From positions 1-64,000 of the IMG/VR virus record IMGVR_UViG_3300009183_000059: a stretch of DNA of 64,000 bases; one strand, given 5' to 3'. The notes under the pieces are model-generated. The model did no database searches, was not told the DNA's origin, and saw only the letters and a list, made by a program, of their open reading frames with translations. The stretch's first letter is position 1; every line of letters begins with the position of its first letter. Positions 1 to 45,744 of this stretch are shown piece after piece. Made by a program: the position numbers and the translations under genes. Origin of the DNA: a virus.

Positions 1-123
1 AATATCACCCATACCAAATGTTTCTTGTGCTAATGTAAATGGCTTATTCAATCTATCTTTAATCATATCTACCTCAGACTTAGGTCCTTGTATAGTTAAT
101 GTGTTATATACCCAGTTTGGCAT
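1..123 (-). CDS. Partial ORF (runs off window), MPNW-type N-terminus, DUF1281/YubB-like phage protein
   Basis: Hand translation MPNWVYNTLTIQGPKSEVDMIKDRLNKPF...; GAAAGG RBS; TTGACT-N18-TAAGAT promoter at 159-188. Confidence 0.6.
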   Translation of the reverse strand, partial: MPNWVYNTLTIQGPKSEVDMIKDRLNKPFTLAQETFGMGDI

Positions 124-295
124 ATTGTTCCTTTCGGGTTGGAAATTGTTTATATCCAATCTTAGCATTGCCGTAATGGGGAAGTCAAGTCCAAATTCCC
201 ACGATTTCTGGGATATCTGCGTAATGCCCGTAATGTGATCAAAATCATACCGCAGCGGCGAATTTTTATGCAATGCGTTGCATATTTATTTATTG

Positions 296-369
296 CGATC
301 TGTAACGGACTTGAACCGTCGACCTCTACCGTGACAGGGTAGCGCTCTAACCAACTGAGCTAACAGACC
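296..369 (-). tRNA. trnD: tRNA-Asp(GTC), CCA not encoded
   Basis: Reverse complement GGTCTGTTAGCTCAGTTGGTTAGAGCGCTACCCTGTCACGGTAGAGGTCGACGGTTCAAGTCCGTTACAGATCG folds as a cloverleaf with GTC anticodon, TTCAA T-loop and G73 discriminator. Confidence 0.95.
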
Positions 370-375
370 AAATGG

Positions 376-403
376 TGAGCAGTTTTTATTCTTGCTCAGG
401 AAT
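376..403 (-). ncRNA. Repeated H-type pseudoknot motif, copy 1 (ATTC-CTGAGCA-A-GAAT-AAAAAC-TGCTCA)
   Basis: One of five copies with compensatory P1 changes; lies between the DUF932 stop codon and the tRNA 5' end. Confidence 0.6.
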
Positions 404-409
404 TTTTAT

Positions 410-1423
410 TTATGCGATTGCTAAAACTGTTTTCACAATTTTTGCTAAGCGATTTTTTTCTGCGTTGATTTGTGCGTCAAATCCACTTGCAGCAGCGAGC
501 AGACTTTCTGTCTTTCCACCACGAGCAGTGCGAGCCCAATCAAGGCGTTCGGTGAGTGCATTTAGTGCGCCCCAACCAGTGCCAGCAATCATTCCGTTGA
601 ATTCACCAGTGTATAAATCGTTGATTGTATCCACTTTTGTTTCCCACTTTTTGATTGCGCCTTTTGTATCCTTCTCAGGCTTTGGATAAGCCGCAAGAAT
701 GATGTCGTTGAATTGCTTAGCATTGACTGACTTCTCATAGAGAGCGTTAGCCAACTTTGAGAATTCGTCCATATAGAAATCTGCCATTCCTAGTGCTTGA
801 CGAGCAATAGCAATCTTTCCTTCTGCAGTTTGTGTGTGGCGAATTTTGAATGATTGCTTTACGCCACCCTTTTTCTTAGCACCCAATGCAAGATTGAGAG
901 TGTTAGCGCACACAACACGAACAGGTGTAATGCTTGCTTGAATAGCAATAGAGCCATCGTGTGATGTGTTGATGAGCAAATAAGTTTTTACAACATCATT
1001 GACACCAGTAGGGTCTAGAACAACTTCACGCTCTAGAGCAAGAGAGCCGAATACAACACGACCACCCTTGATTGAACCAGCAGTTTCCCAGCGACCACCG
1101 CCGTCTAGAATGTTATCGCCAAATGCAAATAAATCTTCATTTTGCAATGGAACATAACGCTGACCAACTACACCAAGAATATCGGTTTGTGTGTTGTCGG
1201 TAGGATTAGTGCGTAGGACATACTGATAATCCTTATCAGATGTTAGGTGATTTGGAACTTCCAAATCTTCTAAGCGGACATTCCATCCATTTAGATTTGC
1301 AAGAGATAGCATTTCAGATGTATTTACTTCATTAGTAAATACGGTTCCTAAACCGTGCCAAGCAGGTTCACGGAATGAGGCAAAAGATGTTTTGCCGTTT
1401 TGACTTTCGAGGTCGTGCGCCAT
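410..1423 (-). CDS. DUF932 / TIGR03299-like phage-plasmid protein
   Basis: Motifs REPAWHGLG, WETAGSIKGGRVVF, YLLINTSHDGS, TPVRVVCANTL, IRHT, GTGWGALNALTE. Confidence 0.9.
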   Translation of the reverse strand: MAHDLESQNGKTSFASFREPAWHGLGTVFTNEVNTSEMLSLANLNGWNVRLEDLEVPNHLTSDKDYQYVLRTNPTDNTQTDILGVVGQRYVPLQNEDLFAFGDNILDGGGRWETAGSIKGGRVVFGSLALEREVVLDPTGVNDVVKTYLLINTSHDGSIAIQASITPVRVVCANTLNLALGAKKKGGVKQSFKIRHTQTAEGKIAIARQALGMADFYMDEFSKLANALYEKSVNAKQFNDIILAAYPKPEKDTKGAIKKWETKVDTINDLYTGEFNGMIAGTGWGALNALTERLDWARTARGGKTESLLAAASGFDAQINAEKNRLAKIVKTVLAIA

Positions 1424-1452
1424 ATTTTCCTTCTTTCTTTGTTGTTATTTCA

Positions 1453-1482
1453 AGTATAACAGGATGAACTGACAGATGTCAA
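1453..1482 (-). promoter_or_regulatory. Early promoter with TTGACA -35, TGTCAG (-26 type) element and extended -10 TGtTATACT
   Basis: Minus strand TTGACATCTGTCAGTTCATCCTGTTATACT upstream of the DUF932 gene. Confidence 0.75.
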
Positions 1483-1512
1483 TTCGTATAGGTAAAAATG
1501 TCCAATTTTCGG

Positions 1513-1558
1513 TGTGATCAAATTCACACCCGTAAGCCTGTGGATAAGCTGTGGATAA
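1513..1558. promoter_or_regulatory. CRP-type box (TGTGA-N6-TCACA, 1513-1528) and two DnaA boxes (TGTGGATAA, 1539-1547 and 1550-1558)
   Basis: Exact consensus matches in an intergenic region. Confidence 0.65.
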
Positions 1559-1590
1559 CCCGCCTCGCATTTCTGCGGGATTGTCAAGTC

Positions 1591-1776
1591 CTATTTCATT
1601 TTAGTAATTGACTCCCAAAAAGTGGGAGGGTCTTCATTTGCTTGCGCCTTAACATCATTGTAAGTTTTATCATTTAGTAATGCGGTGATAATAAAAAACG
1701 GCGCAATAAAGAAGAACATAAGTAGTAGCACAAAACCAATGCCAATTACATAGCCAAGAAAGTCATAGAACCGCAT
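1591..1776 (-). CDS. Small membrane protein
   Basis: 61 aa ORF with long hydrophobic N-terminal segment, co-oriented with neighbours. Confidence 0.65.
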   Translation of the reverse strand: MRFYDFLGYVIGIGFVLLLMFFFIAPFFIITALLNDKTYNDVKAQANEDPPTFWESITKMK

Positions 1777-1787
1777 AATCTATTGTC

Positions 1788-2258
1788 TCACGCTTCTACT
1801 AGATTTGGCAAATCGTATCTATTTTCAGTTATCTTTGTTTGGTCAATGTCAGACATTTTAGATTGCCATAATGATAAATTGGATTCAAGACGGTCACCAA
1901 AAACTCTTACAAAATCTGCAAGGTCTACGGTCTCACCAGTCAAACAAGATTTAAGTACATCGATACCAAGGTACACTCGACTATCCCCGCTCCACCCAAT
2001 TGAAACAGGTACCAGGCACGTACGGTACTCATCTTGAATCCAACCTACCCCCTCTCCACAAATAACAGCGTGTTTAGCACATCCATATGCATCAGGGTCA
2101 TTAATCATAACTAGTACTAGATCTTCTACAGAATGATTCTTCATATATTCAACGGGGTCCATATCATAAGTGGCAACCTGGATATCCCGTGCACGTTCCA
2201 ATAGCTTAGCTTGATCAAGCTTATAGCCAATAAATCCTCGTGTGCGTTCTCTTGACAT
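1788..2258 (-). CDS. Hypothetical phage protein
   Basis: 156 aa ORF, AGGAGA RBS, operon context. Confidence 0.7.
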   Translation of the reverse strand: MSRERTRGFIGYKLDQAKLLERARDIQVATYDMDPVEYMKNHSVEDLVLVMINDPDAYGCAKHAVICGEGVGWIQDEYRTCLVPVSIGWSGDSRVYLGIDVLKSCLTGETVDLADFVRVFGDRLESNLSLWQSKMSDIDQTKITENRYDLPNLVEA

Positions 2259-2267
2259 ATATATCTC

Positions 2268-3017
2268 CTATTTCTTAGTAGCGCTAAATCGAATGTCGGC
2301 CTTACCATAAACGCATAGGCCACAAGATACGCAGGCGGACCCATTGCTTGAGATTAATGGAATTGCTTTTAAATTCTCAGGACATTTAGCCCCGACTTTA
2401 CCAGTCAACTCTTTCATCTTATCAGCGGTTACGGCAAAAGTTTTTCCAAGGTATGCAAGGCGGACCTCATAATCCTTTTTTAACTCTTCTCCAATTGTAG
2501 CATTTTCATCATCGGTTGAAAAGTATAGGGAAAGATTAGTAATCTTATTTAGAATTAGAGCGGCAGGCTTCACACGTGTGTATACCCAAAATTGAATGTC
2601 GGGATGATTAGTGATAACAGTCTTCCAGGCATAAGTGTAAGTATCATTAAAAAAGTCCCCGTCCCAGTGAATGCGGAATAACTTAGGGGCAGATTTCTTA
2701 TCACAATCAGCAATAAATTCTACAATCATCTCATCTAATAGTCTAACCATAGTTTCGCTATCGGCGTCTTTTAGTAGGGCCCAGTTATGAAGAAGATTAG
2801 TCTTTACTCCCTTGAATAATTTTTCAAGTTTCCCAGCGTAGCAAACAGTCTCACAGATAGACGTTGCACCAGGACAAGAAAAATCTTTTCCTGCAGGTAG
2901 CCCGAACGTGTTCGCAATTGCGGCTTGCTTTCCATTTTTTGTGACAAGGTTAGCCACCTTTCTGTCATTAGAACGTTTTAGTTTCATAGGAATAATTGTA
3001 TCGGAGGCCACTGACAT
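2268..3017 (-). CDS. Gp88-like (radical-SAM-related, Cys-rich) phage protein; alternative start at 2987
   Basis: CPGATSICETVCYA, FRIHWDGDFF, FWVYTR, NLSLYFSTD and C-terminal CPE...CVSCGLC motifs typical of Gp88-like proteins. Confidence 0.7.
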   Translation of the reverse strand: MSVASDTIIPMKLKRSNDRKVANLVTKNGKQAAIANTFGLPAGKDFSCPGATSICETVCYAGKLEKLFKGVKTNLLHNWALLKDADSETMVRLLDEMIVEFIADCDKKSAPKLFRIHWDGDFFNDTYTYAWKTVITNHPDIQFWVYTRVKPAALILNKITNLSLYFSTDDENATIGEELKKDYEVRLAYLGKTFAVTADKMKELTGKVGAKCPENLKAIPLISSNGSACVSCGLCVYGKADIRFSATKK

Positions 3018-3160
3018 TATAGGTCTCCCATTTCAGCGTCGGCCATACGTGTTTCCATATAGTCATCACGATACCAAATTGGATCGGATGAAGAATAGCC
3101 TTTCATACAGATAGTGCAGATAGAGTAGTTCGTGCAGTAACAAGAATTAATATCGTTCAT
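3017..3160 (-). CDS. Unannotated 47-aa Cys-rich microprotein
   Basis: Hand translation MNDINSCYCTNYSICTICMKGYSSSDPIWYRDDYMETRMADAEMGDL; GAAAGG RBS; TAATG overlap with next gene. Confidence 0.7.
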   Translation of the reverse strand: MNDINSCYCTNYSICTICMKGYSSSDPIWYRDDYMETRMADAEMGDL

Positions 3161-3304
3161 TAATTCGCCTTTCGTTCGGGTGTATAACAATACTAGCAGA
3201 TATTTCAGTGGATATCAATTTCTACTCGTAAGTAGCGTGTGATGTTGATCACATGCCGCCTCGCATTTTCAGCGATTTTGTCAAGCAGCTCGTATGTGGT
3301 GTGT

Positions 3305-3465
3305 TGAGCAGTTTTGGCACTTGCTCAGGTGGTCTGCGTCTTTAGGTCGGCAGTAACCTTGCTCTATAGTATTTCTGTGATCGCCCTAATCAGCCTGGCG
3401 AAAGCAGTTTTAACACTTGCTCAGGTGCTTCGCAATTTATCGTTATGCGAGAACGATTGCGCTTT
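3305..3465 (-). ncRNA. Tandem array of H-type pseudoknots, including copies 2 and 3 of the CTGAGCA motif
   Basis: ATCGTT/AACGAT with TCGCA/TGCGA; GCAC/GTGT with AGCA/TGCT; AGGT/ACCT with CTGC/GCAG; CAC/GTG with TGAGCA/TGCTCA; no credible ORF. Confidence 0.55.
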
Positions 3466-3467
3466 AG

Positions 3468-3650
3468 TTATGCGCCAATTTTTACCATTGCCCACCGCAT
3501 ACCATTTTCGGTTTGCAGAGATAACTTAGTTAGGTTTGGTCGGACAGAAACTATTTCACGAATAGAACCTGTAACGCCTGACTTACCAGTTGTGAAAGTA
3601 TCTCCTAAGCGGTAGAACTTTCCTTTTGTAACATCTAGAATTGGTGACAT
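3468..3650 (-). CDS. Small beta-rich protein, paralogue of 4290-4436
   Basis: Shared GxTFTTxKSGVxGxIxExV...RW motif. Confidence 0.75.
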   Translation of the reverse strand: MSPILDVTKGKFYRLGDTFTTGKSGVTGSIREIVSVRPNLTKLSLQTENGMRWAMVKIGA

Positions 3651-3680
3651 TTTATTTCCTTCTTTCGGGTAGTTGTTGTG

Positions 3681-3770
3681 TTGAGCCTTTTCACAACTTG
3701 CTCAGGTTGTAAGAGTTCTTACTTACGACATTGGACTAGAAACTCTTAGAAACTGTCCCTGTTTCGATTA
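3681..3770 (-). ncRNA. Structured intergenic element plus pseudoknot copy 4
   Basis: GAAAC/GTTTC stem, GGAC/GTCC pseudoknot, TAAGAGTT/AACTCTTA stem, then ACAAC-CTGAGCA-A-GTTGT-GAAAAG-GCTCA. Confidence 0.5.
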
Positions 3771-3775
3771 TCTAA

Positions 3776-4198
3776 TTACAGATAACGAGCAATAGCATTG
3801 TAAGTGCTTGTGCTAACCAATTCCTCATCTGTCATTTTCAGAATACGGATTGCGTTTGACATTTCCTCTTTCATCTCACGATACTGATGAGAGTGAATAA
3901 CCTCGAAATCCTTTTCAGGTTCAGCAGGGAAGTTGCCTTCCTTTGTGATGATGTCGAAATCAACATTGAGGGTGTTGTTCCATTGACGATAGTTTGTGCG
4001 TAGGTTTTCAGCCTTTGAGAAGTTCTCAATAGCCCACTTAGCAATTTCCTTTTTCCAAGCCTCTTGCTTCTTACCGAACTTTGCTTCCTTTTCGGTTTGT
4101 GTAGCATAGTCTTGCTCTAGTTCTGCTAACTTTGCCTCTAGTGCCTTGATAACTCTAGCAGTAGGGATTTTTACATTTATAGATTTGCCTCTTGACAT
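3776..4198 (-). CDS. Hypothetical helical phage protein
   Basis: 140 aa ORF, AAAGGA RBS, own TGTCAG-N10-TAGAAT promoter at 4243-4264. Confidence 0.8.
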   Translation of the reverse strand: MSRGKSINVKIPTARVIKALEAKLAELEQDYATQTEKEAKFGKKQEAWKKEIAKWAIENFSKAENLRTNYRQWNNTLNVDFDIITKEGNFPAEPEKDFEVIHSHQYREMKEEMSNAIRILKMTDEELVSTSTYNAIARYL

Positions 4199-4289
4199 TT
4201 GTTTCCTTTGTTAGTTGGGTGGTTTGGGTTTCTTACTATCTAATTCTAGCAGGGGCTACTGACATTTTGCCAATAGCCCCCGATTAGGA

Positions 4290-4436
4290 TTACTTCGCTG
4301 TTGTCCAGCGAGTTTGACCTGCGACATCAAGTTTGATACGATAAGAGCCATTATCGTTCTTGACTACTTCTGTGATTGTTCCTTCTACGCCAGACTTTGC
4401 TGTCGTAAAAGTTTCACCGATTTTTGGTGTTGTCAT
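4290..4436 (-). CDS. Small beta-rich protein (start revised to MTTPKIG), paralogue of 3468-3650
   Basis: GAAAGG RBS precedes ATG at 4436; the longer ORF call runs through the promoter at 4468-4489. Confidence 0.75.
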   Translation of the reverse strand: MTTPKIGETFTTAKSGVEGTITEVVKNDNGSYRIKLDVAGQTRWTTAK

Positions 4437-4628
4437 TTTTGCTTCCTTTCCGTTTGTTGTTATTACAAGTCTAGCAAATCCTACTGACATTATCAAATCG
4501 TAAATCGGTCAAATCGGACATTTTTTCCACAAATTCTGTGATAAATGTCATAATGTCGTAACTTGACAAAGCCCTGGAAATGCGCCCCGCATTTTTATGC
4601 AGTCAGCTGAATATTTATTCAGAAATAT

Positions 4629-4748
4629 TTATTCAGAATATTTATTTTTATATTTTTGTTTTCGTGAATAAACTTTTTTTGATTGCACATAAGTTGCAGC
4701 GTTTGATCTCCGCAATTCTTGAATGCGTGTAACTTTTTCTTTTATCAT
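4629..4748 (-). CDS. Unannotated 39-aa basic microprotein
   Basis: Hand translation MIKEKVTRIQELRRSNAATYVQSKKVYSRKQKYKNKYSE; follows 4754-5026 in operon. Confidence 0.6.
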   Translation of the reverse strand: MIKEKVTRIQELRRSNAATYVQSKKVYSRKQKYKNKYSE

Positions 4749-4753
4749 TTTTC

Positions 4754-5026
4754 CTAATCCCATTCTGGTAGCCAAGCGTCTAAGTGGTGTTGTTCTGCAA
4801 TTGCGTGTGCGGGTGCAGTTGTTTTATTTTTATACAATACGCCTTCAGGCAATTCAATTTCAGTATTGCCATCGCCTGCGTGAATTGCATCTATTGCGTC
4901 AATGCAAGGTTGCACCATAGTAAGTGGAACGGGCGGGTAGTGATTACCCTGTAAGTGATAACCAATAGCCTGTTCAAGTGATAGGTCAAAGTTAGTTGCT
5001 AAGTCAATTGCTGTATTGTTTCCCAT
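4754..5026 (-). CDS. Hypothetical phage protein (HLQGNHYPPVP motif)
   Basis: 90 aa ORF, coupled to upstream ORF. Confidence 0.75.
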   Translation of the reverse strand: MGNNTAIDLATNFDLSLEQAIGYHLQGNHYPPVPLTMVQPCIDAIDAIHAGDGNTEIELPEGVLYKNKTTAPAHAIAEQHHLDAWLPEWD

Positions 5027-5238
5027 TATGCATTTTCCATTTCTTTTAGTAGTTTAGAGTTTCCCATACTATCAGACTTGACTGACAATTCACAATCACG
5101 GCACTGGTATTCATAGCGAATAGTGCCTTTTCTATACATACCGCCAAGAGTAGCAATACACATATGAGTCATTTTTTCTGAGCATACTGGGCAAGGGAAT
5201 GAAATCTGATCCCCTAGCCCACCAATAGTAATTGTCAT
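5026..5238 (-). CDS. Zinc-ribbon protein
   Basis: CPVC...CRDC; overlapping start/stop with neighbours. Confidence 0.7.
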   Translation of the reverse strand: MTITIGGLGDQISFPCPVCSEKMTHMCIATLGGMYRKGTIRYEYQCRDCELSVKSDSMGNSKLLKEMENA

Positions 5239-5450
5239 CTAGTTACCACCATTCCACTACGATAGAAAACTTTTGTATAGCATTTGCCAGTTGGCGTGTA
5301 TAGATTTACAGTTGAATACTCGTTAGCCATTCCCCAGTCTGTAAAACTGAAGAAAGATTTCCAAGCGTCAAATTCGCTTTCATAGCGTTGCTTCCAATGA
5401 GGGCTTTCCTCATAGTCATACTGACAAGATACTAGATACTCATAGTCCAT
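5235..5450 (-). CDS. Hypothetical protein (start revised to MDYEYLV)
   Basis: GAAGGAG RBS before ATG at 5450; the longer call overlaps another ORF. Confidence 0.7.
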   Translation of the reverse strand: MDYEYLVSCQYDYEESPHWKQRYESEFDAWKSFFSFTDWGMANEYSTVNLYTPTGKCYTKVFYRSGMVVTR

Positions 5451-5452
5451 AG

Positions 5453-5593
5453 TTATGCTCCTTCGGGTGTTGTAAATAATTTTACCTCTTGGCACTGACA
5501 AGTTTCGACATCGTAGTCTAACTCGTTGCCCCAGAAAATAAGTCCTTCTCCGTGGCATTCATCGCAAGCAAATCGCATTACTGAGTTTATCAT
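5453..5593 (-). CDS. Unannotated 46-aa Zn-finger-like microprotein
   Basis: MINSVMRFACDECHGEGLIFWGNELDYDVETCQCQEVKLFTTPEGA; TAATG coupling. Confidence 0.7.
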   Translation of the reverse strand: MINSVMRFACDECHGEGLIFWGNELDYDVETCQCQEVKLFTTPEGA

Positions 5594-5715
5594 TAGATAG
5601 CACCTTCCTGAAATAATCCAATTTCAATGTCTAGTAATTCTGCGGGTGTCGCATTATCCAAGTTTATCCAACCCGCACCCTCGTTGTCAATTCTAAAAAT
5701 TTCAATGTATCCCAT
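5593..5715 (-). CDS. Unannotated 40-aa acidic microprotein
   Basis: MGYIEIFRIDNEGAGWINLDNATPAELLDIEIGLFQEGAI; GGAGG RBS. Confidence 0.7.
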   Translation of the reverse strand: MGYIEIFRIDNEGAGWINLDNATPAELLDIEIGLFQEGAI

Positions 5716-5718
5716 TAT

Positions 5719-5934
5719 TTATTCCTCCGTCTTTACTGCTACAGTTCGGTAAGTTCTGCGACCAAAATTATTGTATCCGCTATTAGGTGCAACCTCTACA
5801 AGATAAGTTTCGCAACCTTCATACCAAATACCTTTAGGGTGTTTTTCGGCAGATACGATTTCACCTTGCAAGGTGCGTGAGTAGTAGTTTTTTCCTACAA
5901 GTAGGTTTTCGATTGTGTATACATTTGCTGACAT
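5719..5934 (-). CDS. Hypothetical protein
   Basis: 71 aa ORF, GAGG RBS, tandem TGTCAG promoters at 5964-5985 and 6040-6061. Confidence 0.75.
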   Translation of the reverse strand: MSANVYTIENLLVGKNYYSRTLQGEIVSAEKHPKGIWYEGCETYLVEVAPNSGYNNFGRRTYRTVAVKTEE

Positions 5935-6168
5935 TTGCCAACCTCTTTCTTTTTGTTGTTACAAGTCTATCATTTGCTACTGACATTTTCGGGAAGCCAC
6001 GCCGTAAATGATAAACTATTTTGTTTTTCTTACTCTGTAAGTCTATCAGAACCGACTGACATTTTTCTACCTACTAGCCAGTAAGTTCATAATGTGAGAC
6101 GCTCAAGCCGTGTGATAAATCTCACAAAAATTTCCAGGTTATCCACAGACACTCCGTAAGTTATCCCC

Positions 6169-6216
6169 AGACACGCCCGAGTGCGGGGCGCTGTCGGGCG
6201 TGTTGCATTTAGTTGA
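6169..6216. repeat. 48-bp exact direct repeat, copy 1 (contains 10-bp inverted repeat ACACGCCCGA/TCGGGCGTGT)
   Basis: AGACACGCCCGAGTGCGGGGCGCTGTCGGGCGTGTTGCATTTAGTTGA, identical to 7303-7350. Confidence 0.9.
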
Positions 6217-6221
6217 AAGCT

Positions 6222-6248
6222 TGAGCAGTTTTAGATCGTGCTCAGGAT
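6222..6248 (-). ncRNA. Pseudoknot motif copy 5 (ATC-CTGAGCA-C-GAT-CTAAAAC-TGCTCA)
   Basis: Directly after the stop codon of 6256-6471; compensatory P1. Confidence 0.55.
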
Positions 6249-6255
6249 TTTTATT

Positions 6256-6471
6256 TTATTTTAGCAGAGCGTGTAATTCTGGCAGTTGGCAAATTTCTTT
6301 TACACCGCAAGCATTTTGAAATTTTGCAAAATCAAAATTAGGATTATCAGCAGAAAACATTTCGCCGAATTCAAAAACCAAATCTTCAAAAGTAAATTGG
6401 TCAATCAAATCAGAAAAAGATTCTAGAACGCTTGAAACTTCAATAAAAGTTTTACGAGTATAACGAGACAT
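6256..6471 (-). CDS. Small phage protein, TRK...DNxxF...KF..AC family; paralogue of 8607-8765
   Basis: Motif shared with the hand-translated ORF at 8607-8765. Confidence 0.75.
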   Translation of the reverse strand: MSRYTRKTFIEVSSVLESFSDLIDQFTFEDLVFEFGEMFSADNPNFDFAKFQNACGVKEICQLPELHALLK

Positions 6472-6683
6472 TAATTTTTACCCCATTTCAAAGTGGCATA
6501 AGAATTATTTTTATTTATTTCTTCCATTGCATTTAGAGAGTCAATAGAACCAATAAAACTTCCAGCAAAAAGTTTTTGAATAAAACTTTCAGGCATTGTT
6601 GCAAGAGCGGAAATTACATAGTCGGGAGCCTTGTGCTCGTCAATCTCTGCAATTAGATTTACAGTGTGTGAAATTGTTATCAT
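6471..6683 (-). CDS. Hypothetical protein (start revised to MITISHT)
   Basis: TAATG coupling with 6683-6868. Confidence 0.7.
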   Translation of the reverse strand: MITISHTVNLIAEIDEHKAPDYVISALATMPESFIQKLFAGSFIGSIDSLNAMEEINKNNSYATLKWGKN

Positions 6684-6868
6684 TACTTTACCGCCTTTCC
6701 TTTTAGAACACCACGAACACCGAGCAAGTCGCAATCGAACTTGACGGAAATACCAACAGGGAGTTGTGTTGGATAAGTGTTGATGAATTGGGCAACCGCA
6801 CCTTTAGAAGGAAGGTTGATTTTTGATACTGAACCTGAGAAGGTTTCTAGTCTGATAGTGTAAGTCAT
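6683..6868 (-). CDS. Hypothetical protein
   Basis: 61 aa, AAAGGTGG RBS, promoter at 6905-6926. Confidence 0.75.
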   Translation of the reverse strand: MTYTIRLETFSGSVSKINLPSKGAVAQFINTYPTQLPVGISVKFDCDLLGVRGVLKGKAVK

Positions 6869-6965
6869 TTCTGACCACCTTTCTGTTGTTTGTTTATAGG
6901 AATAAGTCTAGCATAGGGGGCTGACATTTTGAGGCATTTAGCCCCAAAAGTCGGTGTGAGATACC

Positions 6966-7121
6966 TCACAGGCAGTTGATACAATTACAACCTTTAGAGG
7001 AGAATAAATACTTTAGCAATTCCTTGCGAGTATAAGCATCCAAGCCATAAGAGGATTTTACTCCGCCATTATGGTATTCGTGAACGATAGTAGAGAATAG
7101 AGTTTCATTTAGTGTAGTCAT
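6966..7121 (-). CDS. Unannotated 51-aa microprotein, paralogue of 7941-8096
   Basis: MTTLNETLFSTIVHEYHNGGVKSSYGLDAYTRKELLKYLFSSKGCNCINCL; AAAGGTGG RBS. Confidence 0.75.
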   Translation of the reverse strand: MTTLNETLFSTIVHEYHNGGVKSSYGLDAYTRKELLKYLFSSKGCNCINCL

Positions 7122-7302
7122 TTGAGACCACCTTTCTTTTTAGAGATTTACTTCTTTTTCAATCTTTATACTAGTAAGTATAGCAGGGGGGTCTGACATT
7201 TACTGACCAGTAATCGGTCAAATCGGACATTTTGAAATGTGAGTAATCTCACATTATCTTTTTACGCTCAAAATTCCAGTGTGTTCATAATCACACCTGT
7301 AA

Positions 7303-7350
7303 AGACACGCCCGAGTGCGGGGCGCTGTCGGGCGTGTTGCATTTAGTTGA
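7303..7350. repeat. 48-bp exact direct repeat, copy 2
   Basis: Identical to 6169-6216. Confidence 0.9.
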
Positions 7351-7389
7351 TCGTTGTCAAGTGCAACACGAAATTATTTTATTTTATTT

Positions 7390-7482
7390 TTAGTAACACT
7401 CGCTACACATTGCATAATAATATTCACCATCATCAGTTACAAACTGAGTAGTGTCTTGATTACAAGATGAACATTTATTCAT
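7390..7482 (-). CDS. Unannotated 30-aa CxxC...CxxC microprotein
   Basis: MNKCSSCNQDTTQFVTDDGEYYYAMCSECY; GAAAGG RBS. Confidence 0.65.
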   Translation of the reverse strand: MNKCSSCNQDTTQFVTDDGEYYYAMCSECY

Positions 7483-7603
7483 TAGTATTCCTTTCATCAG
7501 TTACACATTTACATTGTGTTACAAGTATTGTATCAGTTTCCACTGACACAATAGCAAGAGTATTGCAATTATCGCAAATCCACATTCCAGCAATCTGATT
7601 CAT
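7475..7603 (-). CDS. Unannotated 42-aa CxxC...CxC microprotein
   Basis: MNQIAGMWICDNCNTLAIVSVETDTILVTQCKCVTDERNTNE; GAAAGG RBS. Confidence 0.65.
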   Translation of the reverse strand: MNQIAGMWICDNCNTLAIVSVETDTILVTQCKCVTDERNTNE

Positions 7604-7605
7604 TA

Positions 7606-7704
7606 TTACCAACACCTTTCGCATAAAGCAGTTATAAATTCTGAATCTTCAATTGACATTTCCATTACGAATTCATCGCAACCTTTACAATTTATAGTTA
7701 TCAT
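7606..7704 (-). CDS. Unannotated 32-aa CxxC...CxxC microprotein
   Basis: MITINCKGCDEFVMEMSIEDSEFITALCERCW; GGAG RBS. Confidence 0.65.
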   Translation of the reverse strand: MITINCKGCDEFVMEMSIEDSEFITALCERCW

Positions 7705-7941
7705 TTATTCACTCCAACCATTTAGATTTTGAAATTCGGAATAAGGTAATTCAATTGTGAATACATTATTATTTTTATACACATTAGCATTTCTGCCTAT
7801 TGTGTATTTTTCTAGGATTACAGTAGCGATACCGCTATCCTCATTTAGAGATACAATTTCCACAACCTTGTGGTTTATGTATTTTGAAGGGGGCTGAAAG
7901 AATTTATCTTTAGCGATTTTATTAGCAAGAGATAGTGACAT
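7705..7941 (-). CDS. Hypothetical protein (start revised to MSLSLANK)
   Basis: TAATG coupling with 7941-8096. Confidence 0.7.
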   Translation of the reverse strand: MSLSLANKIAKDKFFQPPSKYINHKVVEIVSLNEDSGIATVILEKYTIGRNANVYKNNNVFTIELPYSEFQNLNGWSE

Positions 7942-8096
7942 TATTTTGCACACTCGCAATCTTTATGAGTAGGGATAGAGAACAGATACTTTAGCAAAGC
8001 TTTACGCTCTGCAAAAGAAATTTCGGGGTGAAAGTTTTTCACTCCTCCGTGTTGGTATTCAAACACGATTTTATTTAGTGTATTTTCTGATAACAT
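7941..8096 (-). CDS. Unannotated 51-aa microprotein, paralogue of 6966-7121
   Basis: MLSENTLNKIVFEYQHGGVKNFHPEISFAERKALLKYLFSIPTHKDCECAK; AAGGAG RBS. Confidence 0.75.
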   Translation of the reverse strand: MLSENTLNKIVFEYQHGGVKNFHPEISFAERKALLKYLFSIPTHKDCECAK

Positions 8097-8329
8097 TAGG
8101 CATACACTCCTTTTGCAATTAGAGAATCTAATTTAGCAGATAATTCATCTGCTTCATCAGCAACCCACTCTGAAATTTCATAGTGGGACATAAATTCTGC
8201 AAGAGTCATTAGACCCTTGTATTCATTACAGGATACGCAGAAACTTTCGTTAGCGTATTGTGAACAGAAGGCGCAAACAATTTTGTTTGCATACTCTACA
8301 GGGAGAGTGTTTATTGTAAATGTAGTCAT
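8096..8329 (-). CDS. Zn-binding small protein (start revised to MTTFTIN)
   Basis: CAFC...CVSCNEYKG; AAAGGTGG RBS. Confidence 0.7.
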   Translation of the reverse strand: MTTFTINTLPVEYANKIVCAFCSQYANESFCVSCNEYKGLMTLAEFMSHYEISEWVADEADELSAKLDSLIAKGVYA

Positions 8330-8606
8330 TTTAGACCACCTTTCTAGTTTGAGAACCTTTCTCAACTTTCTTTATACTAGAAGTATAACACCTACCACTG
8401 ACATTTTGGGGGGTTACTCGCCAGTATTTTCAAAGTATTTTTGTGATTTGCACCACATAGACTTATCCACAGACACGCCCGACGCCGCCCCGCATTTTTT
8501 GCGATCTGTCAAGTAGACACACCGCAAAAAACTTTTTATTTTAGATTAATAAAAGATAACCAAATAAAGTTACGCAGATTATTAAGAAAATAAATTCTTT
8601 CACGAA

Positions 8607-8765
8607 TTAATTCTCCAAACAAGCTTCAAAAAACTTTTCTTCGTTAAACCTTTCGTTATCTTTTTTAAACATATTAGAAAAATCTAATAGCAAACCAGCG
8701 GGAGCATTTTCAAAATGCTTATTTAGAATTTCAGCGGTAGCGATGTAGTCTTTACGTGTCATCAT
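8607..8765 (-). CDS. Unannotated 52-aa protein, paralogue of 6256-6471
   Basis: MMTRKDYIATAEILNKHFENAPAGLLLDFSNMFKKDNERFNEEKFFEACLEN. Confidence 0.75.
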   Translation of the reverse strand: MMTRKDYIATAEILNKHFENAPAGLLLDFSNMFKKDNERFNEEKFFEACLEN

Positions 8766-8875
8766 TAGTTTAGTCCATTCTCTTTTAGGTCTTTGATTAC
8801 GGCAATGATTAGGGGGATAGTAACGCCAAGCATTACTAATTGGACGGCGGTAGTTAGTAGACGATTACTTGACAT
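8765..8875 (-). CDS. Unannotated 36-aa membrane microprotein
   Basis: MSSNRLLTTAVQLVMLGVTIPLIIAVIKDLKENGLN; TAATG coupling. Confidence 0.6.
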   Translation of the reverse strand: MSSNRLLTTAVQLVMLGVTIPLIIAVIKDLKENGLN

Positions 8876-9011
8876 TCTTAGTTTTCCATTTCTTATAATA
8901 CTTATAACCTACCGCTAATAGGGCGGTGGTAATTAGTAACTGCCAAGAAAGCGCAATATAGCACCATTCTGTGTCGAGCATAAAGCCGTAGTTATCTAGT
9001 TCAATAGTCAT
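8865..9011 (-). CDS. Unannotated 48-aa membrane microprotein
   Basis: MTIELDNYGFMLDTEWCYIALSWQLLITTALLAVGYKYYKKWKTKNVK. Confidence 0.6.
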   Translation of the reverse strand: MTIELDNYGFMLDTEWCYIALSWQLLITTALLAVGYKYYKKWKTKNVK

Positions 9012-9163
9012 TAGTTCTGTTCTACCTTTCGCATATGGGCTACTACATTTTTAGAAACCTTTTGTAATTCGGATACTGTCTTATTCATTTCATCTGCTGA
9101 TGAAGCCTTGAAATCAACGCCCAAGAGTTGAGCGCCGTCCCATAGTGAGTATGTTATTGTCAT
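9011..9163 (-). CDS. Unannotated 50-aa protein
   Basis: MTITYSLWDGAQLLGVDFKASSADEMNKTVSELQKVSKNVVAHMRKVEQN; promoter at 9201-9222. Confidence 0.7.
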   Translation of the reverse strand: MTITYSLWDGAQLLGVDFKASSADEMNKTVSELQKVSKNVVAHMRKVEQN

Positions 9164-9246
9164 TTACTGTTCTTCTTTCTGTTAGTTTGTTTATATGATA
9201 ATACTAGTGGATAGGGGTGACAAATGTCAAGATTAGATCGTGTGAG

Positions 9247-9459
9247 TTACGCCACACGATTAGCGAATACCCACTTACTTTCGTTAGGGGTAAGGTAGCG
9301 GTGAGAGATAAGACCCTCAGAGGCTACCATATGGACATATGCCATACGGCTAATGTAGTTACCATTAGCAAGGCGGAAGAGTTCATTACTCTTAGTGTTA
9401 GAGGAAGCCATAGAGTGGTTAGGCTCTACTACTACTGATAATGTATTTAGTGAATTCAT
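9247..9459 (-). CDS. Hypothetical protein
   Basis: 70 aa, GAAAGGA RBS, long structured leader. Confidence 0.7.
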   Translation of the reverse strand: MNSLNTLSVVVEPNHSMASSNTKSNELFRLANGNYISRMAYVHMVASEGLISHRYLTPNESKWVFANRVA

Positions 9460-9634
9460 TTTAGAATTCCTTTCTTTTTTATTCGGTTAGTATTTCTAAC
9501 CTTTTTGCTGACCTAGTTTATTTGCTCTTTCGGGAGGCTCACCTAGGATTTTCTTTTATTTAGTTTTTCTTATGTAGTAAGACTATCAGACCAAACCCTG
9601 AAAGTCAAGGCTATTTGGTGTGATGTCTACCACA

Positions 9635-9793
9635 CTAGGGCTTAGTGTATCCCTTACCCTGTGGGCAGTGGATGTCAAACTGACCTCCACACATTACACA
9701 GCGTGTCCACGCTGTGAGTCCCCCGCAGGTATCGCAAGGGGTAAGGGGGAAGGAGAAGCCTCCCGCATTTCTATTTTCATACAGTGAATTCAT
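9635..9793 (-). CDS. Unannotated 52-aa CxxC...CxxC microprotein
   Basis: MNSLYENRNAGGFSFPLTPCDTCGGLTAWTRCVMCGGQFDIHCPQGKGYTKP; GAAAGGA RBS; promoter at 9844-9865. Confidence 0.7.
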   Translation of the reverse strand: MNSLYENRNAGGFSFPLTPCDTCGGLTAWTRCVMCGGQFDIHCPQGKGYTKP

Positions 9794-10047
9794 TTGGAAT
9801 TCCTTTCTTTATTGTTAATCACCTTGATTAACTTGATACTAGTATCCTATCAGACCCCACTGACATTTTCTACTCAAAAAACGCCCAAATCGGACATTTT
9901 AAATGTGAGATACACCACATTAGGGCTATGGGCGCACTATTTGTCCGTTTTGTGCTACTCAGAGTATGAATCATACAAATTAAATGGATATTAACATTTT
10001 AGAAAAGCTAATATTGTAGTTGACTAGAAATATGATATAATTGTTTC

Positions 10048-13321: not shown

Positions 13322-14311
13322 GTGATTTTAAGTTTTAACACTAATCCAGGAAATTTAAATATTTCTACAGGTTATGGATATGCGGGATATCATATTGTAA
13401 CAAGTCTACAGAAACTAGGATACAAAGTTCCTTTTAAATACAAGGGTGCTAAAGTTCAATTAAATTTTAGTCAACCACAATTTTTTGATTTAAATAAAGA
13501 TCAATATCAAATTGGATATATGCCATGGGAATCGACTCAATTACAAGAGGGTTGGCTAGAAGCATTAAATGAATGTGACGAAGTATGGGCGACATCTCCT
13601 TGGGTAAAACAAGTTTATGAAAAATGTGGAGTAACTCCACCAGTACATGTTTACGAACATGGAATTGAAAATATTTGGCAACCAATTAAAAGATATAGAA
13701 AAGATGGACCATTAAGGTTTTTACATGTTGGAGAACCAGCACCTAGAAAATCAGGACAGATGACTTTCGAAGCTTTTGTTGATGTTTTTGGAAATGATCC
13801 AGATTATCGTTTAACTATTAAATCTTATAAATATAATACTATAAGAGTATATAATAAATATAATAATATTATAGATAGTACTTTAACTAAAACATATAAT
13901 AATATTTCAATTATACCTGAAGAAGTTTCTACAAGTCAAATGGTAGGCATTTTTAACTCTCATCACTGTTTAATCTATCCATCTTGGGGAGAAGGTTTTG
14001 GTTTCATACCGCTTCAAGCTCTTGCAAGTGGAATGCCAGTAATTTGTACTGAAGAGTGGGCACCATATAAAAAATTCTTAGGACCGCTAGCACTTAAATC
14101 TCAATATGTAGAATCTCCTTGGCAACACCCTCACCCTGGACTAATGGTTGAGCCTTCATACGAAGATCTTTGCGATTTGCTAAGAAAGACTGCTAACGAG
14201 TATAATACTATTGCGGACTATTATTATGAGCAGGCTGCGGAAGTTGGTAAAGCATACGATTGGTTGCAGTTGACTGATAATGCTTTCTCAAGATTAAAAG
14301 AAAAATTTTAA
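13322..14311 (+). CDS. Glycosyltransferase family 4 (GT-B)
   Basis: FLHVGEPAPRKS, IYPSWGEGFGFIPLQALASGMPVI, PWEST motif. Confidence 0.9.
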   Translation: MILSFNTNPGNLNISTGYGYAGYHIVTSLQKLGYKVPFKYKGAKVQLNFSQPQFFDLNKDQYQIGYMPWESTQLQEGWLEALNECDEVWATSPWVKQVYEKCGVTPPVHVYEHGIENIWQPIKRYRKDGPLRFLHVGEPAPRKSGQMTFEAFVDVFGNDPDYRLTIKSYKYNTIRVYNKYNNIIDSTLTKTYNNISIIPEEVSTSQMVGIFNSHHCLIYPSWGEGFGFIPLQALASGMPVICTEEWAPYKKFLGPLALKSQYVESPWQHPHPGLMVEPSYEDLCDLLRKTANEYNTIADYYYEQAAEVGKAYDWLQLTDNAFSRLKEKF

Positions 14312-14399
14312 AAGTTTTAGTTCTTTAAAAAAAAGTCACTATACTTAGTATTACCAATAAAATTAAACCCAACATGTGGGACTAGAGGAGTATTCTAAA

Positions 14400-18532: not shown

Positions 18533-18787
18533 ATGTCATCTATAAAAAGACTAGTACCACTTCATGCAGTTGAATTATCAACAGACCCAGCCAATGGAAG
18601 AATTGGCGATATTTATTATAATAGTGCTGTAAAAGAATTAAGATTTTATGATGGAAGCTCATGGCAACCTGCTGGTGGAGCACTTAGTGGTATTTTAGAT
18701 CACGTACACACTTATGATGGAGAAATTTATTCTGTAGAAAATGTTCAAATTCCAAATCCAGGATTTATTGATGGCGGAGATGCATAA
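18533..18787 (+). CDS. Small fibre-associated protein
   Basis: GDIYYNS...LRFYDGSSW, IDGG end motif. Confidence 0.65.
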   Translation: MSSIKRLVPLHAVELSTDPANGRIGDIYYNSAVKELRFYDGSSWQPAGGALSGILDHVHTYDGEIYSVENVQIPNPGFIDGGDA

Positions 18788-44331: not shown

Positions 44332-44377
44332 ACTGGTATTTGCGTTTTAATCTACTAAGAGATATTATAATAACACT

Positions 44378-45721: not shown

Positions 45722-45744
45722 AGACAAGGCAGGTGAAAAAACAA

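Follow-up and report, generated by a model that had tools for sequence, protein, structure and literature searches.

A compact RNA pseudoknot repeated at gene ends in phage genomes

The −1 frameshift pseudoknots of luteovirids (BWYV and PLRV type) are compact H-type knots of ~28 nt, the T4-type gene 32 mRNA carries a single-copy autoregulatory pseudoknot in its 5′ leader where gp32 nucleates, and the preQ1-I riboswitch aptamer (RF00522) occupies the 5′ leaders of queuosine genes. Intrinsic terminators and REP-type 3′ stabilisers are gene-end stem-loops. Among RNA viruses, the coremin motif (xrRNA-C) and its Watson-Crick variant xrRNA-WCC are described in beny-, cucumo-, and picorna-like viruses (Dilweg et al.; PMC6546385, PMC10520033, PMC10321173), with coremin-type knots blocking scanning ribosomes and stimulating frameshifting (PMC10520033, PMC10321173); the luteovirid knots have been cited as coremin look-alikes (PMC10321173). 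The gene 32 pseudoknot has been mentioned as absent from Rfam (PMC10690425), and the PeSL elements of T4-like phages, composite promoter-terminator cassettes, are thought to mediate module shuffling (PMC2839356, PMC4122927). Here, we describe a pseudoknot of similar size at gene ends in a 64,000-nt stretch (the window) of a 94-kb phage genome, IMG/VR record IMGVR_UViG_3300009183_000059.

Copies in the window and their fold

The initial annotation had placed five copies of the element on the minus strand of the window, and a pattern search, a covariance model built from copies in other phages, and an independent repeat finder all agree on these places (Table 1). The pattern CTGAGCA-N4-9-AAAASKGCT gave 4 matches against 0 in 100 shuffles, with the fifth copy being the GGCUCA variant; the covariance model gave each of the five an E-value between 1e-8 and 1e-12, and the repeat finder returned the identical five as its family D4. 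A covariance-model search of the remainder of the window and the rest of the genome gave no further credible copy. A weak match at 39926-39960, missing the CUGAGCA core, was discarded.

Table 1. Pseudoknot copies and the adjacent tRNA gene in the window.
Feature	Position	Strand	Support	Parts	Distance from co-oriented ORF stop	Neighbours
Copy 1	376..403	minus	covariance model 50 bits, E=1.6e-12; pattern match; repeat finder	P1 403-400 with 391-388 (AUUC/GAAU); L1 C399; P2 398-393 with 381-376 (UGAGCA/UGCUCA); L2 A392; L3 387-382 (AAAAAC)	6 nt	DUF932 gene (410-1423) upstream; tRNA-Asp 6 nt downstream
Copy 2	3305..3331	minus	covariance model 41.3 bits; pattern match; repeat finder	P1 CAC/GUG; L1 C3328; P2 UGAGCA/UGCUCA	~136 nt (97 nt after copy 3)	70 nt past the end of copy 3; then CA-rich tail and TTGACA-type promoter region
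Copy 3	3401..3428	minus	covariance model 37 bits; pattern match; repeat finder	P1 GCAC/GUGU; L1 C3424; P2 UGAGCA/UGCUUU (one G.U pair)	39 nt	60-aa ORF 3468-3650 upstream; hairpin UCGCC...GGCGA next
Copy 4	3682..3710	minus	covariance model 37.3 bits; repeat finder	P1 ACAAC/GUUGU; L1 C3705; P2 UGAGCA/GGCUCA (A.G variant, 5 pairs)	65 nt	140-aa ORF 3776-4198 upstream; next start codon at 3650
Copy 5	6222..6248	minus	covariance model 44.4 bits; pattern match; repeat finder	P1 AUC/GAU; L1 C6245; L2 C; P2 UGAGCA/UGCUCA	7 nt	71-aa ORF 6256-6471 upstream; then 48-nt repeat holding GC hairpin
tRNA-Asp (GUC)	296..369	minus			5′ end is the RNase P site, 6 nt past copy 1

The first stem, P1, differs between the copies yet pairs in each, as had been proposed. 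The second stem, P2, had been described as conserved, which does not hold strictly, given the G.U pair and lost outer end pair of copy 3 and the lost inner end pair of copy 4. Each copy does lie on the transcribed strand downstream of the stop codon of a co-oriented ORF, and the reported spacing of 6 nt from tRNA-Asp was reproduced, with copy 1 ending at 376 and the tRNA beginning at 369.

Covariation shows a compact H-type RNA pseudoknot of ~28 bases. P1 (3-6 pairs of any sequence) ends in a closing C-G pair and is followed by an invariant C-U, while P2 has the core GAGC/GCUC and comprises 4-6 pairs, two of them G-C. The 5′ strand of P2 is joined to the 3′ arm of P1 by an A that never varies and a second base. 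Most often, this arm and the A-rich linker ending AAAC together measure exactly 10 nt, and 186 of 221 copies have precisely this distance between CUGAGCAH and the 3′ strand of P2. The larger alignment that the initial annotation named as a check of its compensatory changes (~220 copies on >120 viral contigs) showed covariation in both stems, with all four Watson-Crick pair types present at two positions. P1 was able to pair in 144 of 156 unselected pattern matches and, among 80 copies picked by a model blind to P2, double changes occurred at 8 of 10 pairs (4.2 ± 0.8 in shuffles; 0 of 500 reached this level). The single broken pair at the central P2 positions of this set was C.A. Central P2 pairs showed G.U 28 times and A.C twice, indicating that the sense-strand RNA is under selection; with the shared orientation of knot and upstream gene (171 copies to 8), this bears out the earlier reading of an RNA-level element.

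G is depleted (3-5%) at the two positions following P2, where a G would lengthen P2 at the expense of L1 and P1. Nested folds reach -5.5 to -9.2 kcal/mol and either helix by itself is weak. The C of L1, U10, A15, and A23-25 are invariant while the partners of U10 and A15 vary, and these residues, including three linker adenines, may form groove contacts of the kind that strengthens small luteovirus-type pseudoknots. With a sequence-agnostic descriptor search, only P2 sequences of the URRRYA type rose above background.

Distribution and placement at gene ends

The cultured phages carrying the motif infect Mycobacterium, Arthrobacter, Bacillus, Lactobacillus, Synechococcus, and Paracoccus, mostly lineages having RNase J, and include Labelle (M. 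smegmatis), Amigo (Arthrobacter), and Page (B. megaterium). A faecal metagenome supplied a further carrier, the genome of a crAss-like phage. The motif is widespread in phages of many bacterial phyla. Neither this spread nor the covariation of P2 had been known to the initial annotation. Among bacterial genomes, 10 of 381 in the class Clostridia had a match and 381 Gammaproteobacteria were at background level, a small comparison confounded by prophage content and GC; one query of 5,426 E. coli genomes gave no match. The initial annotation had not recognised a named family, and none was found in Rfam 15: in the 64-kb window, the gathering score was reached by the tRNA alone, and at E <= 10, no hit for positions 1-7000 or a 51-nt slice (365-415) overlapped any copy on its strand. 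The knotted fold is thus absent from this catalogue.

The knot lies a median of 11 nt from the stop codon and 74 nt from the next start. The distance from the stop has a near-hard floor at 4 nt (a single copy is at 3) and a mode of 5 nt, with 86 of 203 copies sitting 4-9 nt past the stop and ~40% more than 15 nt away, including three of the five in the window (39-136 nt). The stops preceding the knot are TAA (72%), TAG (19%), and TGA (9%), compared to 57%, 19%, and 24.5% for all ORFs at the same loci, a bias confounded by sequence relatedness and an A-rich setting. The upstream genes are unrelated to each other, and we found no phage protein common to all loci. In head modules of the Lactobacillus type, the knot has low-copy head genes on one side and the genes for scaffold and capsid on the other.

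Three kinds of 3′ flank were observed. A same-strand tRNA begins 3-13 nt past 37 of 226 copies (16%), tRNA-Asp in 31 of these, and none of the 226 lies within 60 nt after a tRNA. The unit of DUF932 gene, pseudoknot, and tRNA-Asp is kept in related phages, with the motif directly following 42 of 44 DUF932 genes. A U-tract directly follows 51 of 219 copies (23%; 8 of 219 at a control offset), as with U5-U8 in L. salivarius prophages and Lactobacillus phage AQ113, and none of the five in the window. The third kind, with neither tRNA nor U-tract, comprises 139 of 221 copies. Directly after P2, ACCA occurs in 18 of 221 copies, mostly from one related group, and ACC in 30 of 221, with AAC, ACU, and AUU similarly common. 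The 30 nt downstream of the knot show no extra structure compared to shuffles (median z +0.29; 6% with z < -2).

The knot and a strong GC hairpin alternate at orthologous gene ends. In three gene families normally followed by the knot, 19 of 30 knot-less members have a strong hairpin instead, compared to 9.3% of 2002 other gene ends. At the position of copy 4, metatranscriptome contigs of relatives carry a UUCG-loop hairpin directly before a promoter. Some metatranscriptome contigs run through copies 3 and 4; being assembled, such contigs cannot show RNA ends. Mosaic joints in relatives coincide exactly with the motif edges. The window holds eight early promoters of one type, one of them inside a hairpin (4243-4285), and a terminator scan of the sense strand at 1-8000 found no canonical terminator.

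Candidate functions

Reasoning from context, we tentatively favour, at somewhat less than even confidence, a gene-end structure that would fix and shield the 3′ end of the upstream message and sometimes act as a terminator stem. The knot would be transcribed as the last part of the message, as near the stop as a terminating ribosome permits without unwinding it. The 3′ end would arise by intrinsic termination where a U-tract follows, with P2 as the terminator stem, by RNase P where a tRNA follows, and elsewhere by an endonuclease cut and 3′-5′ trimming; the knot would then halt 3′-5′ exonucleases, leaving the end fixed and protected. Covariation establishes the fold, and where the knot sits, what follows it, and its exchange with hairpins were observed; the exonuclease block, termination, and tertiary contacts are inferred. 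Orientation and spacing tied to the upstream gene, the tRNA and U-tract flanks, the hairpin interchange, and the lack of a canonical sense-strand terminator at 1-8000 all support this reading. Against it, conservation of the sequence across phyla exceeds what a roadblock alone should require, some metatranscriptome contigs run through copies 3 and 4, the helices are individually weak, most copies have neither tRNA nor U-tract downstream, and in the Lactobacillus-type head modules, stabilising the upstream part is not an obvious need. Of the functions initially listed, the context best matches a nuclease roadblock or processing signal, judging from the position at gene ends, the RNase P sites and U-tracts that follow, and the exchange with hairpins, whereas a small ribozyme or ligand aptamer gained no support, given the many copies per genome at 3′ ends and no expression-platform logic.

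The apparent bias to RNase J lineages (present in Clostridia, background in Gammaproteobacteria, no E. coli match) would better suit a directional 5′-3′ roadblock, a bacterial counterpart of viral xrRNAs stopping RNase J, or 5′-end-dependent scanning by RNase E, from the upstream cistron and keeping the decay of one message out of the next gene or tRNA. We consider this unlikely, as the spacing follows the upstream stop and not the downstream start, no copy comes after a tRNA, the place where a new 5′ end left by cutting would want shielding, a U-tract follows nearly a quarter of copies, and the taxon comparison is small and confounded as noted above. While the layout is like that of coremin and xrRNA-WCC (PMC10321173, PMC10520033), there is no counterpart of the second hairpin on which coremin strictly depends, with the downstream 30 nt shuffle-like, and an H-type knot with a short L1 makes no ring around the 5′ end. 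The Lactobacillus-type head modules, where the genes next after the knot encode scaffold and capsid, needed in abundance, do agree with a 5′-3′ roadblock.

A role in translation, with the knot at the mRNA entry channel of a ribosome on the stop codon, would mean either blocking post-termination sliding into the next cistron (uncoupling) or tuning termination and recycling. The 4-nt floor and 5-nt mode place the first P1 pair at ~+11 from the P-site, where the ribosome helicase reportedly begins its work (a 2005 observation of Takyar et al.), and the spacing is that of -1 frameshift and readthrough signals; however, tight packing of a folded 3′ structure in a compact genome predicts the same pile-up, and the ~40% of copies beyond 15 nt, three of the five here among them, do not share it. 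Stops rich in TAA and poor in TGA would fit avoidance of leaky stops, although this bias carries the confounding by relatedness and A-rich context. Coremin-type knots do act on ribosomes (PMC10520033, PMC10321173). Where a tRNA or promoter comes next, there is no following cistron to uncouple and, given stops in two frames inside the motif, no useful recoding product would result; we therefore regard a translational role as improbable.

Slightly less probable still is a specific binding site, conserved in sequence because of its partner, for a cellular factor or small ligand, candidates being RNA polymerase or NusA, Hfq, RNase P, the CCA-adding enzyme, or a metabolite. Since no phage protein is common to all loci, such a partner could only come from the cell. 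The residues invariant across phages of many phyla, with U10 and A15 keeping their identity against varying partners, would be accounted for, but tertiary contacts within the fold explain them equally well. The confinement of the descriptor signal to URRRYA-type P2 and an architecture resembling the preQ1-I and other pseudoknot aptamers are also in its favour; opposed to these are the 3′-end location, copy numbers reaching five or more per genome with no expression platform, the lack of any Rfam aptamer match to the 51-nt slice at E <= 10, and the rarity of an ACCA tail mimicking a tRNA end. A DNA-level element, either a protein-binding palindrome (TGAGCA-N11-TGCTCA, given P2 is an inverted repeat) or a short homology patch promoting module shuffling between phages, as the mosaic joints and the PeSL precedent might suggest (PMC2839356, PMC4122927), is very improbable and largely refuted by the strand-asymmetric pair statistics (G.U tolerated, A.C not); in addition, P1 covaries outside the palindrome, orientation tracks the gene strand, the floor between stop and knot is ribosome-sized, and joints at gene ends are expected in any case.

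Comparison with described elements

The preQ1-I aptamer has its parts in the order of the phage knot: a small P1, a loop, and a 3′ tail to which the loop pairs, A-rich and ending AAAC-U; the phage element differs in its longer P2, a single A, U, or C as L2, and no expression platform. We rejected identity with this riboswitch given no match to RF00522 and copies at the 3′ ends of unrelated genes. The counts of ACCA and ACC after P2 do not correspond to a tRNA-like 3′ end mimicking the acceptor arm, in which a discriminator base and CCA would come after the helix. The gene 32 pseudoknot, also compact, H-type, and encoded by phages, has a first loop of one base crossing a stem of 6-7 pairs, as the phage knot does, but differs from the gene-end knot in its single copy, 5′ leader position, nucleation of gp32, and sequence.

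On its sequence, the phage knot resembles the coremin xrRNA but lacks defining features of it in the loop and downstream. Both are ~20-30 nt, often repeated, and lie just past an ORF (8 nt downstream in SPlV5). In both, a C-G pair closes the short first hairpin, whose first loop base is a pyrimidine and not freely changeable; the spacer is A-rich, ends AAAC-U, and pairs with the loop (GGAG/CUCA in SPlV5, GAGC/GCUC in the phage knot). The phage loop, CUGAGCAH, has 8 nt compared to the YGAD (4 nt) or YGNNAD (6 nt) of coremin (PMC10520033), and while its first base, C, fits Y, it misfits both because its second base is U and not the required G. The spacer reads N-AAAAC followed by UGCUCA, compared to the conserved 8-10 nt GUUAAACUAC of coremin, with AAAC-U shared and the CUAC end not (PMC10520033). 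P2 has 4-6 Watson-Crick pairs where coremin has 0-3, the second hairpin required for Xrn1 resistance is absent from the downstream 30 nt, and the hosts are bacteria, without Xrn1. A further defining property of coremin and xrRNA-WCC is the stalling of a 5′-3′ exoribonuclease at the foot of the first hairpin.

The luteovirid knots are alike in their very short L1 with an essential cytosine, an adenine-rich last loop along stem 1, and a position 5-9 nt behind the codon in the ribosomal A site. The phage knot differs in following a stop codon and not a slippery heptamer, with no extended frame beyond, in its many copies per genome, and in that its tertiary contacts are predicted ones.

With gene-end stem-loops, the phage knot shares repetition, co-orientation, and location at the 3′ ends of small early genes, in many cases with the next promoter directly after, and at module joints, in addition to the U-tract at 23% of copies and the interchange with GC hairpins at orthologous ends. 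An intrinsic terminator's single stable G+C-rich hairpin is not what the copies form, given P2 has only two G-C pairs within a pseudoknot. The knot is AU-tolerant, only 28 nt long, and mostly without a U-tract. PeSL cassettes consist of a simple stem-loop joined to an early promoter and recur in the hyperplastic regions of T4-like phages; in the phage knot there is no simple stem-loop and no promoter fusion, yet the pseudoknot replaces the stem-loop at some gene ends; and whereas PeSL and REP sequences are lineage-specific, the sequence of the phage knot recurs across the phages of many phyla.

Five pseudoknot copies in the early region

The first 7000 nucleotides of the window contain, on the minus strand, five copies of one short motif (see table). 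In each copy, a variable arm of 3–5 bases with C at its end leads into a loop of CUGAGCA and one more base, and the complementary arm starts with G. Next comes a linker ending in AAAAC (AAAAG in copy 4). The last element reads UGCUCA in copies 1, 2, and 5, UGCUUU in copy 3, and GGCUCA in copy 4. This layout corresponds to an H-type RNA pseudoknot (hereafter, the knot) with a variable stem, P1, and a conserved stem, P2. The core pattern occurs four times, versus none in 100 shuffles, a repeat finder grouped the identical five places as one family (D4), and a covariance model whose training copies came from other phages scored the five at 37–50 bits. The five-copy pseudoknot described in the initial annotation was correct in every particular. 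The covariance model detected no further credible copies in the rest of the window or in the remaining 30 kb of the 94-kb record; a weak match at 39926–39960 was rejected as a sixth copy given its missing loop core. The tRNA-Asp begins 6 nt past copy 1. No match to cultured phages was found for positions 1–8000 by megablast.

The initial annotation had also assigned the motif to no named family, and a search of Rfam 15 agreed: there was no match to the motif at the gathering score, and at E ≤ 10 none on 7 kb or on a 51-nt slice in the right strand orientation. The motif is likewise without description in the searchable literature and in the text of both the catalogues of phage structured RNAs and the 2026 language-model preprints. 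It could be related to one csRNA of PMC10690425, which sometimes overlaps a tRNA-Asp.

Positions of the knot copies and of other features in the window, with two knots from other viral loci
Feature	Position	Strand	Remark
Knot copy 1	376–403	minus	
Knot copy 2	3305–3331	minus	
Knot copy 3	3401–3428	minus	
Knot copy 4	3682–3710	minus	
Knot copy 5	6222–6248	minus	
tRNA-Asp	296–369	minus	downstream of copy 1
DUF932 gene	410–1423		upstream of copy 1
Early-promoter-like motif AATGTCAG-N8-TGNTANNNT	4243–9867, also 2994–3020	minus	8–9 copies; 0.06 expected by chance
GC hairpin GGGGCUA...UAGCCCC	4243–4285	minus	directly after 68-aa ORF
Paralogous small ORFs (60 and 68 aa)	3468–3650 and 4290–4496	minus	shared G-E/D-T-F-T-T-x-K-S-G-V
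Hairpin UCGCC-aggcugauuag-GGCGA	3350–3400	minus	right after copy 3
Exact 48-nt direct repeat	6169–6216 and 7303–7350		contains GC-rich hairpin ACACGCCCGA...UCGGGCGUGU, no U-tract
Exact DnaA-box-like nonamers TTATCCACA	1539–1558; 6139–6169; 8463–8471	minus; plus; plus	
GT4 'conflict-system' glycosyltransferase and class II (B12-dependent) ribonucleotide reductase	13322–16331	plus	
400-aa protein with Mtd_N (major tropism determinant N-terminal) domain	18787–19989	plus	
Portal, prohead protease and HK97-type capsid genes	42763–46830		
Knot with U5–U8 tract, AQ113 and L. salivarius megaplasmid prophages	L254 696–735; L258 1500–1540		

The sense strand of positions 1–8000 has eight promoters of the AATGTCAG-N8-TGNTANNNT type, where 0.06 would be expected, and no canonical terminator. 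The early-promoter-like motif combines an extended −10 with a conserved upstream box, and all copies precede small ORFs. The GC hairpin after the 68-aa ORF holds the AATGTCAG box and abuts the −10, a PeSL-like terminator–promoter composite, and this arrangement was also noted in several related loci. The 60/68-aa ORF family, with no Pfam match, comprises 32 members in 24 loci, 13 of which are directly followed by the knot. The UCGCC...GGCGA hairpin recurs after knots or gene ends elsewhere (e.g., loci L038 and L019), and one copy of the 48-nt repeat lies 6 nt past copy 5. The DnaA-box-like nonamers are intergenic and in the early region, two of them in tandem at the minus-strand site, with no overall enrichment in the window when one mismatch is allowed; 'ttatccaca'-like tails follow the knot in several other loci. 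Further along, the glycosyltransferase and reductase genes lie where the minus-strand early genes give way to genes on the plus strand. The Mtd_N protein could bind receptors, as do the proteins on which diversity-generating retroelements act.

Fold, covariation and distribution

An exact-pattern scan of IMG/VR, in which P2 was fixed and the flanking arms were left free, returned at least 119 contigs. Among the matches listed, the P1 arms formed at least three contiguous pairs in 144 of 156 instances (chance ~5%), and in 100 aligned copies, two P1 positions were paired in every sequence using all four Watson–Crick types, with a C-G closing pair throughout. As the initial scan had fixed P2, this stem was instead tested on 80 additional copies from the same loci, found by a model treating P2 as plain sequence. 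Here, 8/10 pairs changed on both sides, versus 4.2 ± 0.8 in shuffles (0/500), with switches from G-C to A-U (seven times), A-U to G-C, G-C to A-U, and C-G to U-A. Wobble intermediates were common and only one central pair was broken; in slid-partner controls the paired fraction fell to 24–37%. The compensatory P1 changes first claimed from the five copies are therefore borne out by these larger alignments, which show covariation in both stems. The further proposal of an RNA-level element is upheld by the central P2 pairs of 180 copies with standard spacing, where G.U outnumbers A.C by 28 to 2, an asymmetry indicating that selection acts on the sense-strand RNA and not on duplex DNA or the antisense strand.

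Three features look like design. C is the first loop base in 226/232 copies; exactly 10 nt separate the loop from the P2 3′ strand in 186/221; and G is all but missing at the two positions following P2, where it would lengthen that stem into the first loop (L1) and compete with P1. Motif positions U10 and A15 and three linker adenines are invariant. Since U10 and A15 have varying 'partners', the P2 core comes down in effect to GAGC/GCUC. By analogy with small luteovirus-type knots, the invariant unpaired bases probably make tertiary contacts, a C triple and adenine–minor-groove contacts being the ones proposed. When any P2 was permitted in a descriptor search, only the URRRYA type exceeded the reversed-sequence background.

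The ~28-base fold, with key residues near-invariant, occurs in phages of at least six bacterial phyla, and its copies fall into at least 22 locus groups without a shared protein (G+C 32–64%). A shared protein partner was rejected, as no neighbour is universal; DUF932, the commonest and most widespread neighbour family, is found at only 44/120 loci, which are partial and make this a weak test. Model-confirmed copies are present in the cultured Mycobacterium phage Labelle, Arthrobacter phage Amigo, Bacillus megaterium phage poppyseed, Lactobacillus phage AQ113, cyanophages S-RIM4 and S-EIVl, and Paracoccus phage ParKuw1, and in the uncultured crAss-like phage cr7_1 (a human faeces genome), while a Pasteurella phage carries a degenerate copy. 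The Labelle knot comes after gp85, and that of Amigo sits between SSB and tRNA-Gly. Ligilactobacillus and Vagococcus 'plasmids' gave sequence-level matches in prophage head modules (by BLAST and reading of the DNA, not model-scored). P1 was present in 41 of 121 pattern matches in GTDB genomes, mostly on small MAG contigs next to ORFan genes, from Saccharibacteria and other CPR MAGs, Eubacteriales, Aminicenantes, and others; the other 80 lack P1, are as numerous as expected for 596 Gb, and were set aside as chance. In the class Clostridia, 10/381 genomes matched versus a background level in 381 Gammaproteobacteria (a small sample and a degenerate pattern, with P1 unchecked), which suggests a host bias. 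One query with a single P1 variant had no match in 5,426 E. coli genomes, which is no proof of absence. The motif represents a real family of phage RNAs, undescribed so far and widely distributed.

Placement at gene ends and possible function

The gene upstream of the knot lies on the same strand in 171 cases versus the opposite strand in 8, with median distances of 11 nt from the stop to the motif and 74 nt from the motif to the next start. Many copies (86/203) sit 4–9 nt past the stop, with a sharp floor to the spacing (3 nt, n = 1; 4 nt, n = 11; 5 nt, n = 22). With a 4-base spacer, pairing starts at about +11 from the P-site; in ribosome helicase mapping, ~+11 is the first position that needs no unwinding with the stop codon in the A site. 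Downstream, a U-tract directly follows the motif in 51/219 copies (8/219 at a control offset), reaching U5–U8 in the Lactobacillus examples; in AQ113 and the L. salivarius prophages the site is conserved, with the scaffold gene on one side and, on the other, a small ORF that follows the minor head gene. The five copies in the window carry no U-tract. A same-strand tRNA begins 3–13 nt beyond 37/226 copies (tRNA-Asp in 31), and no copy lies within 60 nt after a tRNA. Copies with neither tRNA nor U-tract lead either into a promoter or into the next gene's CA-rich leader and Shine-Dalgarno, and no unusual structure was found in the 30 nt downstream of the knot. A tRNA-acceptor mimic with an ACCA tail was rejected as not general among copies, and a rut-like C>G tail because G depletion is limited to ~8 nt.

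The knot is also interchangeable with plain hairpins. In three gene families usually followed by a knot, knot-less members have a strong hairpin within 50 nt in 2/2, 8/10, and 9/18 cases, compared to 9.3% of 2002 other gene ends. In lake metatranscriptome contigs of relatives, the 3′ UTR before copy 4 is joined to a hairpin with a UUCG loop, immediately followed by the promoter found at 7200, and the base after copy 1 is joined directly to this same promoter; both joints are no more than hints. Together, these gene ends and contig joints indicate that the knot and plain GC hairpins share the slot at the end of gene cassettes. Metatranscriptome runs X15–X18 cover the region as assembled contigs. 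Depth was highest over the gene at 3776–4198 and lower after copy 4 in three runs, and the tRNA that follows copy 1 had low depth. Nothing is concluded from these depths, since contig depth can neither rank genes nor show ends, copies 3 and 4 are bridged by some contigs, and carry-over of DNA may have contributed.

Tentatively, the best-supported reading is that of a boundary structure at the gene end that forms part of the upstream message. The knot would be packed as near to the stop as a terminating ribosome tolerates and placed where the 3′ end is made, whether at a U-tract, by RNase P, or by cutting and trimming; there it would stop 3′-5′ exonucleases and, in a quarter of cases, would itself serve as the terminator stem. 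The fold, its placement, the classes of flanking sequence, and the exchange with hairpins are demonstrated; nuclease blocking and termination are inferences from them. A roadblock to 5′-3′ degradation in the manner of xrRNAs seems unlikely: its likeness to coremin, the apparent bias to RNase J-bearing lineages, and the site ahead of scaffold and capsid genes speak for it, but the anchoring to the stop, absence after tRNAs, U-tracts after knots, and missing second hairpin speak against it. Less likely again is a role at the level of the ribosome, to which the spacing floor would be suited, as would the stops ahead of the knot (UAA 72%, UAG 19%, UGA 9% in loci L001–L119, compared to 57%, 19%, and 24.5% for all ORFs in the same loci; chi-square p ~3e-6, uncorrected for relatedness), yet many copies lie far from a stop. 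Recoding by readthrough or a −1 shift was rejected, with UGA in one motif frame, usually UAA in another, and no slippery heptamers before the stops. We consider a binding site for a conserved cellular factor or ligand slightly less probable still, and a DNA-level element highly improbable, being largely excluded by the strand-asymmetric pair statistics.

Beyond the gene-end boundary reading, it is possible, if doubtful, that the knot is a sequence-specific and mechanically directional RNA device that acts on some bacterial machine conserved in all bacteria, and that it has passed horizontally between phages of Actinomycetota, Bacillota, Cyanobacteria, Pseudomonadota, Bacteroidota, and CPR bacteria. 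Such a device would be the first class of exoribonuclease-resistant RNA from DNA phages (a prokaryotic xrRNA counterpart) or else a pseudoknot-type transcription terminator and ribosome stop. If the knot fixes or shields message ends, it would be a new and very small solution to bacterial mRNA 3′-end formation, and a portable part with which genes in AT-rich contexts could be stabilised or insulated. Blocking of RNase J or ribosomes would connect bacterial viruses with the xrRNAs and frameshift knots known from eukaryotic RNA viruses. In both cases, two questions become directly testable: how phages set boundaries within dense arrays of small early genes that have no canonical terminators, and why a structured leader stands ahead of a phage tRNA. 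Phages with the motif include laboratory-tractable ones of Mycobacterium, Bacillus, Arthrobacter, Lactobacillus, and Synechococcus, and knot function can be tested in cultured phage–host pairs.

Comparison with known systems

The motif is a variation on two known kinds of element, the compact H-type pseudoknot and the gene-end structure. The nearest in structure are the luteovirus-type frameshift knots, while terminator/stabiliser stem-loops and the PeSL cassettes of T4-like phages (PMC4122927) are nearest in genome role. In coremin, GUCCGAAGACGUUAAACUAC, the loop is YGAD or YGNNAD and a second hairpin is required (PMC10520033, PMC10321173). A short hairpin closed by C-G, a leading loop pyrimidine, and an AAAC-U spacer are common to coremin and the knot, and the GAG/CUC pairing of the coremin WCC variant also occurs in the knot. 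However, the knot fails the loop consensus and is without the second hairpin, and for these reasons it is not a member of coremin; at most, by analogy, it may work like one.
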